NCBI GenBank assembly: GCA_038131935.1
Contig: JAYPQH010000032.1
Coordinates: 1 to 64,000 of the forward strand
Direction: 5' to 3'
DNA: 64,000 bases
From: Alphaproteobacteria bacterium
GTDB taxonomy: Bacteria > Pseudomonadota > Alphaproteobacteria > UBA8317
Under the pieces are notes generated by a model. The model was not told the origin of the DNA, did no database searches, and saw nothing but the letters and a program-made list of their open reading frames with translations. A program made the position numbers and the translations under genes. Position 1 is the stretch's first letter. Every line of letters starts with the position of its first letter. Positions 8,138-14,250 of this stretch are shown in pieces.

Positions 8138-9491
8138 ATGACAAATAAAGAAAAGACAGCAGGTGGCCGTCGCGCACAAATGCTCTCTGGTCCTATAGGT
8201 ATTACGCTTCTGCGATTTGCATCGCCAACATTGCTTGGCGCTATTATCCAATCTTCCGTCGGTATTGTGGAAGGTATAGCTATTGGAGGACTAGGCATTG
8301 AAGCACTTGCGGGATCAGCACTCATCTATCCCTTGGTCATTCTTACCCAGATGTTTTCATCAGGGGCCATTGGCGGCACCACCTCAGGAGCCATGGCGCG
8401 CGCCATAGGTGCCAATGACCCCAAACAAATGAGCCAAGTTATTCATGCAACACTCGTCATTGCAATCTCTAATGCCATACTGATGGGATCTATTCTTTTG
8501 TTTATAGGTCCTTCATTATTTAGCTTGTTGGGGAGAAATGGCACCGTTCTGGAGAGCAAGCCTCGCCTACGGTGACATCTTCTTTGTCGGTATGATCAGT
8601 ATGTGGCTGTTCAATATGATTGCAGGTTTGTTTCGCGGTTCAGGTCAAATGTTTATACCTCTGCTTTGCCCTTGGAACAGTCAGTGTTTTACACGCCCTC
8701 ATCTGCTTTCCCCTTGTTGAGGAATACGGCATTCGTGGAGCTGCGATGGCATTGGTTTTTGCTTACAGCATAGGCTCCATCTTGCTTATAACCCGCTTGT
8801 TTCAATCGTCATCTGGCATCAAGCCAGATCGACACCACGGCTTGCCTATCAACTTTCTTTTAACCCTTTATAAAAAAGGACTCATGGCAGCGTCTAACCC
8901 AGTTCTGACCATTTCCACATCTCTTCTTATCACCTCATTTGCCAGCCAGCTTGGGTTACATGTATTGGCGGGTATGGGATTGTTGTGCGCTTGGAACTTG
9001 TTGTCATGCCCATCACCTATGGAATAGGCGCCTCACTCATCGCGATGGTTGGGGCGAATTTAGGTGCTGACAACCGAAACCGTGCAATATCCATTGCATG
9101 GACGGGTTCATTCATTGCAGCTGGAATTGCAGCGAGTATAGGAATATTTGTGGGCATATACCCGGATGTTTGGCTTCCCCTATTTTCACCAAATGATGAC
9201 GTTGCTGAGATGGCCCGTTTAGGCCTAGCGATCATCGCGCCTTGCTATGGTTTCATGGGTCTTGGGCTTGGCTTGTATTTCTCAAGCCATGGTATGGGAA
9301 CAATCGAGTGGGCCGTAGCAGGTGCAGTTTTGCGTTTAATTATTATCATCCTGGGGACCCTCACCCTGATGATGACAGATATGTTTGTGCCAGCCAGCCT
9401 CTTTGCTGTTGTTGCTCTGGCTATTACTATCTATGGCGTTATGGTCGCTTTGGCTTTGCACTTAGGTCCATGGCAGCGAAAACCATTATAA
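8138..9491 (+). CDS. MATE family efflux transporter (frameshifted into several ORFs)
   Basis: GLGIEALAG..LIYP...QMFSSGAIGG, RLELVVMPITYGIGASLIAMVGANLGA; multi-TM. Confidence 0.85.
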
Positions 9492-9561: not shown

Positions 9562-11100
9562 TTATGAATTTTGTCTTTCCTTTAAAACCCATCGATCACC
9601 CAACGTCATGATGGCATCCAACTCGGTAACGGATTTACGATCTAAATTTTTGAGCTGCATGGTCATTCGAGGATTATTTGCAAACCGTTCTTTATGTTTT
9701 GCCAAAAATCTCCAATAAAGTGTTGTCATGGGACATGCTTTGGGTCCAAGTGCCTGACTTGGATCATATTGGCATTGCCTGCAATAATCACTCATCCGAT
9801 TGATGTAAGCACCACTGGCACAATATGGTTTTGAAGCCAGATAACCATTATCAGCATACTGCGACATCCCCATAACATTTGGCATCGAAACCCAATCAAT
9901 CGCATCGGCAAATAAGGCCATGTGCCATATATGCAGTTTTTGGGGATGAACCCCCAATAACATCGCATAAAGACCAAGCACCATGAGCCTCTCAATATGA
10001 TGCGTATACGCATGTTCCATAACGTGATGCATAGACTCATCAATACATTTCATGGTTGAACCTTTCCCCCATAAGGAGGCAGGCACATCTTCTTCTGCAT
10101 CAAGGGCATTAAGCTGTTCATAAGATGGCATCATCTGAAAATAGATACCCCTCACATATTCTCTCCACCCCAATATTTGGCGAATAAAACCTTCAACAGC
10201 ATTTAACGGAGCCCCAGCAATCATCGCTGCTTCAGCTTTTTGTACACATAGGCGTGGGTTCAAAAGATGCAAATTGAGAGAAGATGACAATCTGCCATGG
10301 AACAAAAATGTATGACCTGTTGCCATGGCATCTTGATATCGACCATAATTAACCAATCTGGTGTTTATAAAGTCTTCCAAAGCGATTTCTGCTTGTTGGG
10401 GTGTAACTGGGTAATCAAAACCTTTCACGCTTCCTGGGTGATGTGGAAAGTTAACATCAACTTCTTCCATAACCTGCAACGTAATCTTGTCTGGTTCAAA
10501 ACCTTTGAGTGGTGGTATTTCTGGGGGGCCTTGTTTGCCAAAGCTTTTCCGATTGTCATGATCAAAATTCCATTGCCCACCAATTGGCTGCCCCTCTTCA
10601 TCCATTAAGATCTTATATTTTTTGCGAAGATTACGATAAAAATATTCCATTCGGATTGATTTTCGTCCCTTGGAAAAGGAAGAAAAATCTTCAGGGGTTG
10701 TATAAAAATGAGGGTCTGGGACAATTTCAAGTGTAACACCATGCTTGCAGCACCAAGCACGAAACTCGTTTTCTACAGCAACATCCCCAGGCTGCATCAC
10801 ACGCAATGTCTTAAATGCTTCATCAGTCCAAAATCGATCGAGCGCCTCTGAGAAACTCATACAACGATCATTTTTATTCAATTGAATATATTCTATGTCT
10901 ATTTCTTGTTGAGAACAGGCCTGTTTAAAATGTCTCATGGCTGAAAAAAATAATACAATTTTCTTTTTATGTGCTTTTGGTATGGATGCAGCATCCACCA
11001 CCTCTGCCATAGCCAATCGATGTTGCTCAGGATCAAAGTCAACCAAGAAGGGATGATCTTTCATCAATTGATCGCCAAACAAAAAATGTAACGAACGCAA
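9562..11100 (-). CDS. phrB: FeS-BCP (6-4) photolyase / cryptochrome (PhrB/CryB family)
   Basis: GDQL, HKKKIVLFFSAMRHF, RMEYFYR, GGQWNFDHDNR, EGFIRQILGWREY, HHIERLMV, and four Fe-S Cys (MKC, YCRQC, ACP). Confidence 0.93.
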   Translation of the reverse strand: MRSLHFLFGDQLMKDHPFLVDFDPEQHRLAMAEVVDAASIPKAHKKKIVLFFSAMRHFKQACSQQEIDIEYIQLNKNDRCMSFSEALDRFWTDEAFKTLRVMQPGDVAVENEFRAWCCKHGVTLEIVPDPHFYTTPEDFSSFSKGRKSIRMEYFYRNLRKKYKILMDEEGQPIGGQWNFDHDNRKSFGKQGPPEIPPLKGFEPDKITLQVMEEVDVNFPHHPGSVKGFDYPVTPQQAEIALEDFINTRLVNYGRYQDAMATGHTFLFHGRLSSSLNLHLLNPRLCVQKAEAAMIAGAPLNAVEGFIRQILGWREYVRGIYFQMMPSYEQLNALDAEEDVPASLWGKGSTMKCIDESMHHVMEHAYTHHIERLMVLGLYAMLLGVHPQKLHIWHMALFADAIDWVSMPNVMGMSQYADNGYLASKPYCASGAYINRMSDYCRQCQYDPSQALGPKACPMTTLYWRFLAKHKERFANNPRMTMQLKNLDRKSVTELDAIMTLGDRWVLKERQNS

Positions 11101-11154
11101 ATGCTGAATCCTTAACCTTACTCAAACATCATCATGATGTAGCCTGAAGATAAG

Positions 11155-11183
11155 AAAAAAGGAGACCTAATGAGGTCTCCTTT
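11155..11183 (-). terminator. Intrinsic terminator ending the small-ORF transcript upstream of phrB
   Basis: aaaaaa-ggagacct-aatg-aggtctcc-ttt; perfect stem with a U-tract on the minus strand. Confidence 0.8.
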
Positions 11184-11210
11184 ACGTATTTGTTAGGATG
11201 TGAGGGCTGA

Positions 11211-11294
11211 CTATCTAACGCCACCTGATGCCAAAGCAATTCTATGCACCCAACACCAAAGCTTCTTACAACCCAAATCACTTCCATGAGACAT
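11211..11294 (-). CDS. Unannotated 27-aa small ORF MSHGSDLGCKKLWCWVHRIALASGGVR (or dual-function sRNA)
   Basis: ATG preceded by AGAAAGGAGGTGATCC, followed by its own terminator; below the ORF-track cutoff. Confidence 0.55.
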   Translation of the reverse strand: MSHGSDLGCKKLWCWVHRIALASGGVR

Positions 11295-11309
11295 AGGATC
11301 ACCTCCTTT

Positions 11310-11331
11310 CTGTTGTTGATATCAACAACAG
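11310..11331. promoter_or_regulatory. Perfect 22-bp palindrome (operator or 5' hairpin)
   Basis: CTGTTGTTGAT|ATCAACAACAG; overlaps a candidate minus-strand promoter TTGCTG-N17-TAGGCT. Confidence 0.6.
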
Positions 11332-11371
11332 CCTAAGCCGCCATGTTGCGCGCAGCAACACCAAACAAGAC

Positions 11372-11767
11372 TTATGCCAATGGTGCAACATCTGGCCGCA
11401 TCTCGGCCGTGAATGTTTTTGTGATGACCCACCAACGTCCATCTATTTTAAGCCAGGTCAGATAATCAGTAAATAATTTGTCACCCAAACCAAGTTTTAA
11501 ACGCGCAAAAGCGCAATCTGGACCAGACTGATCAAGAGTTAAAACCTCAAAATAAAATGGGTCACCTCTTTCTGCTGGCTTTATTCGGTGAGCAACACGT
11601 TCATAAACACTTATCATATCATCATCGATCAATTCTCCCTGAGGCGCAGAATAAAGATGACATTGAGGGTGGAAAACCTGCTGCAACTTCTCGATATTTC
11701 CCTCATGAAAACCTTGAGCGTAAATATCAAGAAGGTCTCTGATGGCGATCAAATCTTCACGCATCAC
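11372..11767 (-). CDS. NTF2/SnoaL-like protein (putative lumazine-binding family)
   Basis: IRDLLDIYAQGFHEGNIEKLQQVFHP...FTDYLTWLKIDGRWWVITKTF pattern. Confidence 0.75.
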   Translation of the reverse strand: MMREDLIAIRDLLDIYAQGFHEGNIEKLQQVFHPQCHLYSAPQGELIDDDMISVYERVAHRIKPAERGDPFYFEVLTLDQSGPDCAFARLKLGLGDKLFTDYLTWLKIDGRWWVITKTFTAEMRPDVAPLA

Positions 11768-12150
11768 TTCATTACCGATAATGCTGTGGCAGACATATTA
11801 TACACTTTAATGCTGTTTCTATCTATTAATGTGGCAACAGTTGGGCCAATGTTATTTACCCATTCATCACTCTCATAAACAGCCTTGTACAAAGCGGCTT
11901 TCTGCTCCTCACTTTCAAACCGTCGGATCCATATATAGGTGTTCATATCGGTGTCATGATCCATGACACGTTCTCCTTCAACAACAGAGAACTGATCCAC
12001 ACTATCAACCATAAAGCTCCCATGAATAACCATGCCTTGAGCAACTTGAAATGGAATGATGGTCTCTTGCATGAACTTTTCCCCAAGCATCACGCTGGCC
12101 AGGCAATATTTGGTATATTCTTAATTCAAAAAATGATGACATCTCTTCAT
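11764..12150 (-). CDS. NIPSNAP family protein (frameshifted near N-terminus)
   Basis: FELRIYQILPGQ in the upstream frame, then FMQETIIPFQ..GM, YIWIRRFESEEQK...VYESDEW; AGGAG RBS. Confidence 0.8.
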
Positions 12151-12241
12151 TGTCTCCTATTGTTGTAATTTAAAGGTTGCAAAAAAATGGTTTGTCTCAA
12201 CTGCTACTGTTTCTCAGGATCATCATCATGTCCAGAAGACA

Positions 12242-12856
12242 TTAGAATTCCTCAGCTGTTTGGCGTCGCATTGAAAACACATCACGTAAAGGTGCATAAA
12301 GGTCAGCATATAAGCGCCCCACAGCATCATAGGCGTCTCGATTTAAATAAAAAGTATCGGGATCAATCAAACCCTCTCTTACATGCATATACAGTACTTC
12401 TCCAACAACAATATCCCGTTCTGCACTCAACTGCATGGTCACAGTCCTGCGGCACTCAAAGCTCACAGGGGCTTCTAGAATTCTTGGTGCTTTGATTGTT
12501 TTTGAAGGTGCTGGCGTAAAGCCTGCGAGCGCAATTTCATCATATTCTGGCTCAAACTCAATAGCCGTAATATTCATTCCTTCCGCGATATTCATATCCA
12601 CCATATTGATCACGAATTCACCTTCTTCACGAATAAGATGGGCTGTATCCTTGGGCCGGCCATCCGGTCTTCGTTGAATACCGAGAACACATGTCGCTGG
12701 GTCTTCCGCAAACATGTTGAAAAAACTGTATGGGGCAGCGTTCATTCGGCCATGCTTATCTACCGCAGAAACCAACGCGATGGGCCGAGGGATAACAGTC
12801 GCTGTTAACAATTTGTATTTTTGTTTTCCGTCTAATTGAGAAAAATCAAATTCCAT
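12242..12856 (-). CDS. Flavin reductase family protein
   Basis: YKLLTATVIPRPIALVS, NAAPYSFFN, KDT..LI...EFVINMV, VGRL. Confidence 0.9.
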   Translation of the reverse strand: MEFDFSQLDGKQKYKLLTATVIPRPIALVSAVDKHGRMNAAPYSFFNMFAEDPATCVLGIQRRPDGRPKDTAHLIREEGEFVINMVDMNIAEGMNITAIEFEPEYDEIALAGFTPAPSKTIKAPRILEAPVSFECRRTVTMQLSAERDIVVGEVLYMHVREGLIDPDTFYLNRDAYDAVGRLYADLYAPLRDVFSMRRQTAEEF

Positions 12857-12869
12857 GTTTGAAGCACCT

Positions 12870-14108
12870 TTATTGCTGTGTGATGGATGTATTCGCGCTT
12901 ATCTCAGGAATTTGGAACTCTTCCTGACACAATTGCGCAAGCCTACTGATACCTTCACTTATTGTTTGTTCATCAGGACTTGCAAAACAAAGTCTAATAT
13001 ATTGAGACGCGTCGTCTCCCCAGCTCCAACCTTTACCTGGGTTGACCGCAATGCCATCTGCTTGCGCGATGGCATCTAGCTTAGTGGTATCGACAGCCTT
13101 TGGAAACTTCACCCAAAGAAAAATTCCACCTGGTGGGTAAGAATATTCAATTGCTGTGCCGAAATATTCATCAAGTGTTGCGGTTAAATGATCAAGTTTG
13201 CTTTTAAGTAAACCATTTAATTTAAGAAGATGATCGTCAAAATGCTCCTGACAAAATTCAGCAAGAACCATTTGTTCAAGGGCCCCAGAACCAGCATCCG
13301 TTTTTAATGATAAAATTTGGGCCAGTATTGCAGGGTCTGCTACCATGTAACCAACCCGAAATGCCGGTGCAATGGTCTTTGAAAAGGTTCCTATATAAAC
13401 AACACGCCCTGAATTATCTAAACCCCGCAGTGATGGTGGGCGCTGCTGATCCCAGATGAGATCCGCATAACATTCATCTTCAAAAATAATGGTGTCGAAG
13501 GTCTCAGCAAGCTGCAAAAGATGATGGCGACGGGTAAGTGATAAAATTGAGCCCGTGGGATTGTGTATGGTAGGGATTGTGTAGATATATCTCGGTGTTC
13601 GGCCATCAGCTGAAAGCTTTTCTAAAACTTTTTCCAACTGATCCGTTTGCATGCCTTGATCATCTAAAGGTACTGTAACAACCTCTACCCCTAAGCGCGC
13701 CAAACGTGTCTTTACCCCACCGTAATTTGACTCTTCAGCCACCACAACATCGCCTGGCTTTAGAAATGCCATATTGATCAAGTCCATCGCTTGAAGAGAT
13801 CCACTGGTGATCAAAATATCGTCAGCACTGCAGCTAATTGCGGAATACTTATGAAGTTTTTTAGCCAAAAATTCCCGTAATGGCTTGTATCCTTGAGGTC
13901 CGCTTTCCAAACCATAGAAGGCTAAAGTATGCCCTTCACGCTGCAACACCCTATCCGTTGCTTGCCTCAACAAATCTGTAGGGATAGATTCAGGCGCATT
14001 ATGACCGCCAACGAAATTATATGCGGGGAAACCTTGCCAACGTGCTGATGGCGGGGGCAAATCCGCACTCATATAATTTGCTAATGCTTTATCAGATAAC
14101 CTAGTCAT
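12870..14108 (-). CDS. PLP-dependent aminotransferase class I (LysN / 2-aminoadipate transaminase-like)
   Basis: YIYTIPTIHNPTG, IFEDECY, GTFSKTIAPAFRVG (PLP lysine), GGIFLW, IRLCF. Confidence 0.88.
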   Translation of the reverse strand: MTRLSDKALANYMSADLPPPSARWQGFPAYNFVGGHNAPESIPTDLLRQATDRVLQREGHTLAFYGLESGPQGYKPLREFLAKKLHKYSAISCSADDILITSGSLQAMDLINMAFLKPGDVVVAEESNYGGVKTRLARLGVEVVTVPLDDQGMQTDQLEKVLEKLSADGRTPRYIYTIPTIHNPTGSILSLTRRHHLLQLAETFDTIIFEDECYADLIWDQQRPPSLRGLDNSGRVVYIGTFSKTIAPAFRVGYMVADPAILAQILSLKTDAGSGALEQMVLAEFCQEHFDDHLLKLNGLLKSKLDHLTATLDEYFGTAIEYSYPPGGIFLWVKFPKAVDTTKLDAIAQADGIAVNPGKGWSWGDDASQYIRLCFASPDEQTISEGISRLAQLCQEEFQIPEISANTSITQQ

Positions 14109-14250
14109 GAACACCTCCCCAAGCTTTGCAGCATGTTGGCATTCACACGTCATATTTTAGACCAAATCTTTACCAACACCACCGCATGAAACATCGATAT
14201 AGTTGGCATTGGCAAGAGCAAAGTTTTGGGTACAAAAGTTAAACCCTTAA

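Follow-up and report, generated by a model that had tools for sequence, protein, structure and literature searches.

The element on the minus strand at 11155-11335 is very probably this organism's copy of the rre / CC2171 small mRNA, a free-standing RNA which, by analogy with its studied relatives, would capture 30S subunits and be translated weakly or conditionally, and which is no dedicated regulator of the neighbouring photolyase-related gene. Coordinates refer to the window, the whole 64,000-nt stretch of alphaproteobacterial DNA that was analysed. The original prediction described the element from its letters and could not name a described family for it; we found that it matches both the Rfam family RF01867 (CC2171) and the rre small mRNAs. 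The element is a divergent member of a class already described in 2008-2016 and present in Rfam, and is not itself new.

Direct reading of the minus strand at 11155-11360 recovered every letter-level feature that had been proposed, including the perfect 22-bp palindrome at 11310-11331, the order of one T, ATG and a 27-codon ORF, and a terminator placed about 55 bp ahead of the phrB start (an 11-bp stem and T-run, with 54 nt to the TTG). The features of the region are as follows.

11353..11358, minus strand: candidate -35 hexamer TTGCTG, 3 of 6 consensus positions, absent from the list of the sigma-70 scan.
11330..11335, minus strand: candidate -10 hexamer TAGGCT, after a 17-nt spacer from the -35 hexamer, 3 of 6 consensus positions.
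11310..11331, no strand assigned: perfect 22-bp palindrome CTGTTGTTGATATCAACAACAG, overlapping the -10 hexamer and the predicted start site.
11311-11296, minus strand: 16-nt tract AGAAAGGAGGTGATCC, exact, with a single occurrence in the window.
11296..11310, minus strand: extended Shine-Dalgarno (SD) sequence GAAAGGAGGTGATCC, a 15-nt perfect complement of the organism's own 16S 3' tail, invariant in alignment A1.
11295, minus strand: spacer T, followed by the ATG start at 11294-11292 (direct reading).
11211..11294, minus strand: 27-codon sORF MSHGSDLGCKKLWCWVHRIALASGGVR, beginning ATG TCT CAT and closed by TAG at 11213-11211 (direct reading and translation).
11232..11246, minus strand: AU-rich internal segment CATAGAATTGCTTTG, a candidate fold-back on the SD core, spacer and ATG (hand count).
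11155..11183, minus strand: intrinsic terminator with an 11-bp stem (11183-11158), a 4-nt loop and a T-run (terminator scan).
9562..11100, minus strand: photolyase-related gene, PF04244, E 4.9e-73 (domain search), a neighbour outside the element.
11372..11767, minus strand: gene for a putative lumazine-binding fold, PF12893, E 8e-22 (domain search), the upstream neighbour.

The sORF stop codon lies 30 nt ahead of the terminator stem, and the first in-frame start of the downstream ORF is the TTG at 11100, 54 nt past the T-run. The GC content of the sORF is 44%, against a family median of 62%.

The 16S rRNA gene of the same organism is located on another contig (G000:C18:139067-140551), and its end reads ...GGCTGGATCACCTCCTTTC followed by AAGG. 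Because of this ending the contiguous complement is 15 nt, GAAAGGAGGTGATCC, as counted on the letters of the 16S gene and not on the mature rRNA end; the A at 11311 and the T at 11295 that flank it both face mismatches. The perfect complementarity that had been predicted was thus borne out, but its length is 15 nt and not the 16 nt proposed. By arithmetic, 64 kb of DNA, with both strands counted, should contain an exact 16-mer about 3e-5 times. In the 2.48-Mb assembly the 14-mer AAAGGAGGTGATCC has just two perfect occurrences, one in the element and one at the 16S gene end, and the reversed-pattern control gave 0 matches there. The match to the 16S tail is not due to chance. At 15 nt it is one base short of the 16-17 nt search criterion of Hahn et al., which is an operational cut-off; the ATG one base after GATCC and the 27-codon frame fit the criterion of a very short ORF at this place.

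The Rfam search that the original prediction had suggested as a check led to an already characterised family. In a 1-kb scan RF01867 (CC2171 sRNA) was the one clear match, covering model positions 1-159 in full at 33.7 bits (E 3.3e-5; E 5.9e-4 genome-wide). The aligned part extends from the CAACAA leader across the SD and the start codon as far as UCUCAU, and alignment is taken up again at the terminator. The conserved 5' block of the model (CAACAA leader, GAAAGGAGGUGAUCC, start codon, UCU CAU) is present in the window, where it reads TCAACAACAGAAAGGAGGTGATCCTATGTCTCAT and departs from the family consensus solely at the spacer and at base 1 of the start codon. Invariant columns of the alignment cover the whole SD plus TG-TC of the start region. 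The 3' terminator hairpin of the model is also present, as indicated by both the alignment and the terminator scan.

The score of 33.7 bits is far under the RF01867 gathering threshold of 75 bits. We compared it with 20 loci drawn from five peptide subgroups of the family, all of which matched the model at E <= 0.0068; only 2/20 were above the cut-off, with rreB-like loci scoring 41.7-49.4 bits and rreR-like loci 37-39.8 bits. Since clear family loci also score under the cut-off, the score of the window lies within the range of accepted members, and the threshold is simply strict rather than the window a non-member. The same cut-off misses 18/20 clear loci, so genome annotations will seldom show the element and it is likely to go on being rediscovered at first reading. 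From their sequences, the "sRNA" CC2171 of Rfam and the "small mRNAs" rreB and rreR appear to be one superfamily. A term search of the text of Hahn et al. (2016, PMC5711450) returned no mention of Rfam or Landt, and in the literature searched we found no functional role for CC2171, rre or CCNA_R0051.

The original prediction also mentioned similar elements in other Alphaproteobacteria, and these were found by model search, by exact pattern and with one mismatch allowed. RF01867 was searched in the genome of the window and in 150 others, each standing for a further family of the class, and was found in 26/151 genomes at E <= 0.01, with 5 above the cut-off; 23/28 of the loci returned (including that of the window) showed the SD block, one base, ATG, GTG or TTG, and a frame of 18-32 codons. 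An exact-pattern scan of a species-representative genome collection gave at least 120 loci, and among the matches listed nearly all were labelled Alphaproteobacteria (Sphingomonadales, Rhodobacterales, Hyphomicrobiales/Rhizobiales, Acetobacteraceae and others). With one mismatch allowed, the motif was present in 85/401 genomes of the class (74/337 of good quality), usually as a single copy per genome, and the reversed pattern gave 0 matches in this survey.

We collected 141 unique loci, window included, and translated the frame behind the SD. The frame had 14-33 codons in 135/141 loci, as against 38/132 for the +1 frame and 38/124 for the +2 frame. Start codons were ATG (70), GTG (67) and TTG (4). 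Codon 2 encoded Ser in 131/141 loci, through TCT (103), TCG (19), TCC (6) and TCA (3). When searched from the stop codon onward, 125/136 short-frame loci had a terminator, and the distance from SD start to T-run had a family median of 168 nt (IQR 155-180), with 156 nt in the window. Five peptide groups could be recognised among the 141 loci.

Group 1: 14 aa, MS.xKRCHLAGIAR, with an adjoining tRNA; rreB-like, in agreement with the figure legend of Hahn et al.
Group 2: 18 aa, MSRxxLExGVGT; rreR-like.
Group 3: 18 aa, MSHGSAxRS...
Group 4: 20-27 aa, MSHC..PRS..TWI.AS..VR; CC2171-like.
Group 5: 18-32 aa, MSS...

The window peptide starts like group 3 (MSHGS) and ends like group 4 (ASGGVR), and the closest peptides to it are those of loci L159 and L018. 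Across the family, what selection maintains is the SD, the start codon, a Ser as second residue, the RNA helices and an sORF of set length and frame, whereas the peptide itself can vary over much of its sequence. The family is common (85/401 genomes), and lineage-specific clues to its function are worth recording; those offered here are the 22-bp palindrome and probable co-transcription with the upstream gene.

The best-studied relative is rreB of Bradyrhizobium japonicum, an mRNA of 165 nt in which 17 nt are perfectly complementary to the 16S 3' end and a GTG opens a frame of 14 codons (PMC5711450). According to that paper, rreB and rreR are built of an extended SD, an sORF and a terminator and measure about 160 nt overall (PMC5711450). 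The element in the window resembles rreB in its two-sided extended SD, its short ORF beginning Met-Ser and its intrinsic terminator, and would likewise be a free-standing RNA of about 165 nt; both match RF01867 under the cut-off. It differs in that the complement of rreB includes the G of the GTG start, the frame has 14 codons and a tRNA is a conserved neighbour, whereas the window combines 15 nt, an ATG and 27 codons with a promoter palindrome of 22 bp and a peptide unrelated past residue 3. The second published relative, rreR, has 18 codons and occurs in the Rhodobacterales; the function of rre is stated to be unknown in the same paper (PMC5711450). In the Rhodobacter/Roseobacter clade rreR shares the design of leader, SD and sORF, and an unconserved genomic context, with the window, but has 18 codons, a GTG start and another peptide (MSRxxLExGVGT), and its SD core is predicted to be nearly fully paired, with an unpaired probability of 0.00 where the window has about 0.5.

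CC2171 (RF01867) corresponds to CCNA_R0051 of Caulobacter crescentus, reported as an RNA at 2404309-2404501 with a triphosphate 5' end that overlaps a new ribosome-profiled ORF, CCNA_03965 (PMC4117421). CCNA_R0051/CC2171 is listed as an ncRNA (PMC5988900), and CC2171 was listed in a Mesorhizobium survey and confirmed by Northern blot in a Methylorubrum preprint, which states its regulating condition to be unknown. The window is like CC2171 in its full-length model match and in the 5' block through TCTCAT, and the CC2171-type peptides (MSHC...TWI.AS..VR) include its nearest relatives L159 and L018. It is unlike CC2171 in scoring 33.7 bits against the 75-bit cut-off, in lacking the letters of a CAUUGUC/GACAAUG helix, and in belonging to a much AT-richer genome.

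We examined RNA structure in alignment A1, a MAFFT alignment of 32 sequences made up of the closest group plus the window. The terminator showed compensatory changes in 11/12 pairs, and that of the window aligned with the family terminator. RNAalifold on A1 recovered only this terminator and a 3-bp SD hairpin. Two further helices, P1 and P2, were named by us from the same sequences and then counted. In P1, CAUUGUC (codons 3-5) pairs with GACAAUG just ahead of the terminator, with 80.8% of cells paired over the 32 sequences. In P2, an internal CCUGGAUC segment, which copies part of the 16S tail, pairs with a stretch made up of the SD's 3' portion, the spacer and base 1 of the start codon; 90.2% of cells are paired. 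The spacer covaries with its P2 partner (A-U 24, G-C 3, U-A 2, unpaired 3). P1 and P2 cross and would therefore be alternatives or form a pseudoknot. In 500 shuffles neither P1 nor P2 came up to its observed value, a control that flatters both helices because they were derived from those very sequences. Counted from the start, the internal 16S-tail mimic of the closest subgroup is found at +35, +38 or +41, and 21/23 loci have it in one and the same frame.

The window does not carry the CAUUGUC/GACAAUG letters, and at the equivalent place folding predicts another helix, between GGAAGUGA and UCACAUCC. Its internal segment at 11246-11232 gave, by hand count, 13/15 pairs, 5 of them G-U, with the SD, spacer and ATG; these pairs are absent from the minimum-energy fold. 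The covarying P2 of relatives suggests, by analogy, that this segment may bend back onto the SD core, the spacer and the ATG. The 15-nt tract of the window is predicted to be about half accessible (unpaired probability about 0.5). In most groups the 5' GAAAG is predicted to be more open than the SD core, in agreement with the picture of Hahn et al.

Transcription was considered both from a promoter of the element's own and from upstream. The letters of the predicted promoter, TTGCTG-N17-TAGGCT, are present, but they hold only 3+3 of 12 consensus positions and were not listed by the sigma-70 scan. The distance from TAGGCT to the SD is that of the -10-like hexamers of relatives (CATAAT, CATATT, TATAGT and others). 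The lumazine-binding-like gene ends 13 nt ahead of the -35 hexamer, and a better promoter-like site than TTGCTG/TAGGCT was found at 11825-11797. In a scan of 10900-12300 on the minus strand the sole terminator was the element's own, and no terminator belonging to the upstream gene was found before the sORF. Transcription from upstream is thus plausible. The length fits an rre-type transcript of about 165 nt ending at a terminator (156 nt from SD to T-run), with a weak promoter and an upstream gene that has no terminator. From its sequence the element looks like a self-contained small transcription unit.

Six of the 24 listed runs were RNA runs, and 20 of the 24 hold part of the stretch. We compared four RNA-library runs, all of them assembled contigs and hence silent on transcript ends, strand and expression level. 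The sole contig over the whole sORF is X16, which extends from 11180 to beyond 12000 and joins the upstream gene without a break; three others stop at 11303, 11277 and 11300, and the other runs cover the sORF in part. X16 fits co-transcription or contaminating DNA as well as a separate small RNA. Contig X15 (10907-11185) covers the terminator and the 5' part of the photolyase-related gene. As evidence, the RNA-library contigs are too weak to establish either a separate small RNA or read-through.

The palindrome is specific to this lineage as judged by comparison of loci: its arm is 11 nt, and the next-longest arm in the same region among 140 family loci is 7 nt. Its 3' half is the conserved CAACAAC leader of the family, so the 5' half is an addition of this lineage. 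Since the palindrome shares bases with the -10 hexamer and lies over the expected start site, it could be an operator. In a read-through RNA it is predicted to fold as a 9-bp hairpin directly 5' of the SD. No second perfect copy was found in the genome. As a candidate for a repeated operator, the sole other near-match (3 mismatches) was rejected as coincidence because it lies inside a flagellin-like coding sequence.

For the mode of action we relied on published experiments with relatives. The rreB RNA is found mainly in the ribosome fraction, co-sediments with 30S and is weakly translated (PMC5711450); experiments there also show tight 30S binding and start-codon-dependent decay (PMC5711450). 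The idea of a 30S-binding RNA, one of those in the original prediction, agrees with these data, that is with 30S co-sedimentation and weak translation (PMC5711450). By analogy, an RNA of roughly 150-170 nt with a short CA-rich leader would end at the intrinsic terminator, and its 15-nt SD/anti-SD duplex would capture 30S very efficiently, so that few ribosomes move on, as reported for rreB. Translation would be weak or conditional, and ribosome engagement would set the lifetime of the RNA. High-affinity 30S capture is most likely the mode of action. Judging from the mutants of Hahn et al., an ATG start and a duplex that ends one base ahead of it may leave translation less restrained here than in rreB.

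A broader idea, which we consider rather improbable, is that rre RNAs are translation-coupled gauges of free ribosome capacity. The internal copy of the 16S tail would compete with the real tail for the super-SD, and the act and length of translation would be selected more than the peptide; in this organism the unit would form the 3' end of an operon, within a same-strand run of flavin reductase-like, lumazine-binding-like and photolyase-related genes, and the palindrome would serve as an operator or processing hairpin tied to light or redox stress. If this were true, the light- or redox-linked palindrome would be the first physiological handle on the rre family.

We considered it unlikely, on balance, that the element exists for a functional 27-residue microprotein whose synthesis the strong SD simply ensures. 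Frame and length are maintained (135/141 loci, with the mimic in frame in 21/23), and the Ser at codon 2 is retained while all four TCN codons are in use for it. The AT-rich ORF of the window and the GC-rich one of L159 share 13 residues, 9 of them through different codons (all six codons of ASGGVR differ), and their nucleotide identity by codon position is 11, 16 and 8 of 23, highest at position 2 and lowest at position 3, in an alignment made by hand with a partner that is the best of 46. The in-frame similarity of the window to its subgroup reached a maximum of 30, against 6 and 5 in the shifted frames, a value reached by 8/500 shuffles. Against a peptide function, the peptides are wholly different between subgroups, third codon positions are no more variable than the first two, and six family peptides had no Pfam or NCBIfam match. 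The synonymous share of single-base codon differences, counted within groups of equal length, was 0.257 in frame against 0.354/0.416 in the +1/+2 frames (n=27), 0.31 against 0.337/0.387 (n=18), 0.34 against 0.335/0.309 (n=8) and 0.317 against 0.351/0.335 (n=10); an excess was seen solely in the rreR-like group (0.417 against 0.287/0.302, n=8). The T-W-I-L-A-S part of the conserved peptide is encoded by the RNA segment that copies the 16S tail and shows covariation with the SD spacer. RreB and RreR peptides made synthetically are reported to be unstructured, and overproduction had no effect on growth (PMC5711450). The suggestion of a highly translated microprotein also fits poorly with the weak translation of rreB (PMC5711450) and with the Caulobacter footprints, which were seen in minimal medium only (CCNA_03965 footprint RPKM 0 in PYE against 2048.6 in M2G, at similar RNA-seq RPKM, 1334 and 1696; PMC4117421). 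Since the frame is kept and the mimic stays in one frame in 21/23 loci, translation of a frame of set length is under selection; as to whether selection acts on the peptide or on its translation, the sequence evidence is mixed. A mainly non-coding regulator, either a global 30S-titrating sponge or an SD tract that captures anti-SD-like (CCUCC-type) sRNAs or mRNA segments, would be in keeping with a 15-nt tract about half accessible in the predicted ensemble, with the presence of most rreB in the ribosome fraction (PMC5711450) and with the classing of the RNA as an sRNA by Rfam and several papers. We think it quite unlikely: a sponge needs no start codon, Ser codon or fixed-length frame, all of which are conserved, and overexpression of rreB left growth unchanged, its authors noting that ribosomes far outnumber the RNA (PMC5711450).

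The remaining possibility was a ribosome-dependent leader or attenuator, in which translation of the 27 codons decides read-through past the terminator into the photolyase-related gene 54 nt downstream. Element and gene share a strand, with the terminator immediately ahead of the gene, contig X15 spans the terminator and the 5' part of the gene (10907-11185), and the GUCUC after the ATG has the same letters as part of the terminator 3' arm and could compete for the 5' arm (5 bp, by eye). The stop codon, on the other hand, is 30 nt before the terminator stem, and a terminating ribosome, given the size of its footprint, would probably fall short of a stem at that distance. The motif was found upstream in 0/80 photolyase-homologue loci, with 5 matches inside coding sequence, and PF04244 was present in 0/44 flanking ORFs at 22 other family loci, where the neighbours are diverse. 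In a genome of the same genus the orthologue (59% identity) lies behind a divergent gene, with a spacer of about 230 nt that does not contain the element. Hahn et al. also report that rre genomic context is unconserved outside the Bradyrhizobiaceae (PMC5711450). With neighbours unconserved, 0/80 homologue loci and a same-genus locus that does not have the element, the leader reading is unsupported and we regard it as very improbable; the original proposal of a leader or attenuator controlling phrB found no counterpart at the 80 homologue loci or the 22 family loci, nor any linkage in the same-genus genome.

We conclude in favour of the free-standing rre / CC2171 small mRNA, which happens to adjoin the lumazine-binding-like and photolyase-related genes. 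No copy of the element was found in the same-genus genome (G001; 84% complete, 180 contigs) by DNA search, by RF01867 or with a 12-mer allowing 1 mismatch, an absence that is uninformative because this assembly lacks even a perfect match to the 16S end. The upstream lumazine-binding-like protein was not found in G001 either, and a metagenome scan with it gave one locus, at 44% identity, that did not have the element. The best photolyase homologues in the genome collection had at most 49% identity. Among the 44 flanking ORFs of the 22 family loci, FGGY kinases occurred twice.

The rre element, a small mRNA of the rre/CC2171 family (RF01867), lies within a run of same-strand genes on the minus strand of the window (9562-14153), which share a flavin/photoreceptor theme:

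12870-14153, minus strand, aminotransferase
12242-12856, minus strand, flavin reductase-like protein (PF01613)
11764-12093, minus strand, ORF of 109 aa with unknown function
11372-11767, minus strand, putative lumazine-binding protein (PF12893)
between the PF12893 and PF04244 genes, minus strand, rre element
9562-11100, minus strand, photolyase-related protein (PF04244)

A lumazine antenna is used by FeS-type photolyases/cryptochromes of the PF04244 photolyase-related family. On the plus strand at 8138-9491 we also observed three ORFs in a row (145, 135 and 168 aa). The MatE efflux family (PF01554) was matched by the 145-aa and 168-aa ORFs, each in a different region. The three look like one MatE gene broken by frameshifts or assembly errors.

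In an alignment of 32 sequences comprising the CC2171-like subgroup and the window element, two conserved helices were found to cross (columns 32-38/79-85 and 44-51/208-215). One helix (P2) pairs the 3' part of the extended Shine-Dalgarno (SD) sequence with an internal mimic of the 16S tail, and the other (P1) pairs codons 3-5 with the segment preceding the terminator. As these helices cross, they must form either alternative folds or a pseudoknot.

Comparison of the RNA-library contigs identified a single difference within the short ORF (sORF) behind the SD, C>A on the plus strand at 11251, in one assembled contig (X16). By our own reading of the frame, this would give a related strain Leu in place of Trp15. 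The same contig carried seven more differences, from 11513 to 11851.

For the Caulobacter CC2171 sORF, the data of PMC4117421 show ribosome footprints in minimal medium only, with similar RNA levels in both media. The corresponding entry in supplement file 2, CCNA_03965 within the sRNA CCNA_R0051, lists a footprint RPKM of 0 in PYE and 2048.6 in M2G, and an annotated CTG start 14 nt past the 5' end of the RNA. This CTG seems too near the 5' end to follow a 15-nt SD. The passages of the paper that we consulted pass over the condition-dependence of the footprints without comment.

In published accounts, rre small mRNAs are confined to Alphaproteobacteria. Our pattern scan also collected three rre-like loci, of which L090 and L109 are labelled outside this class (positions within each locus sequence):

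L090, 283-455, labelled Burkholderiales
L109, 283-453, labelled Bordetella
L143, 283-458

All three have the leader, SD, GTG, frame of 24-27 codons (MRDxQG...) and terminator design in common, and their RF01867 scores are weak (22-32 bits). The assemblies that contain them may have been mis-binned.
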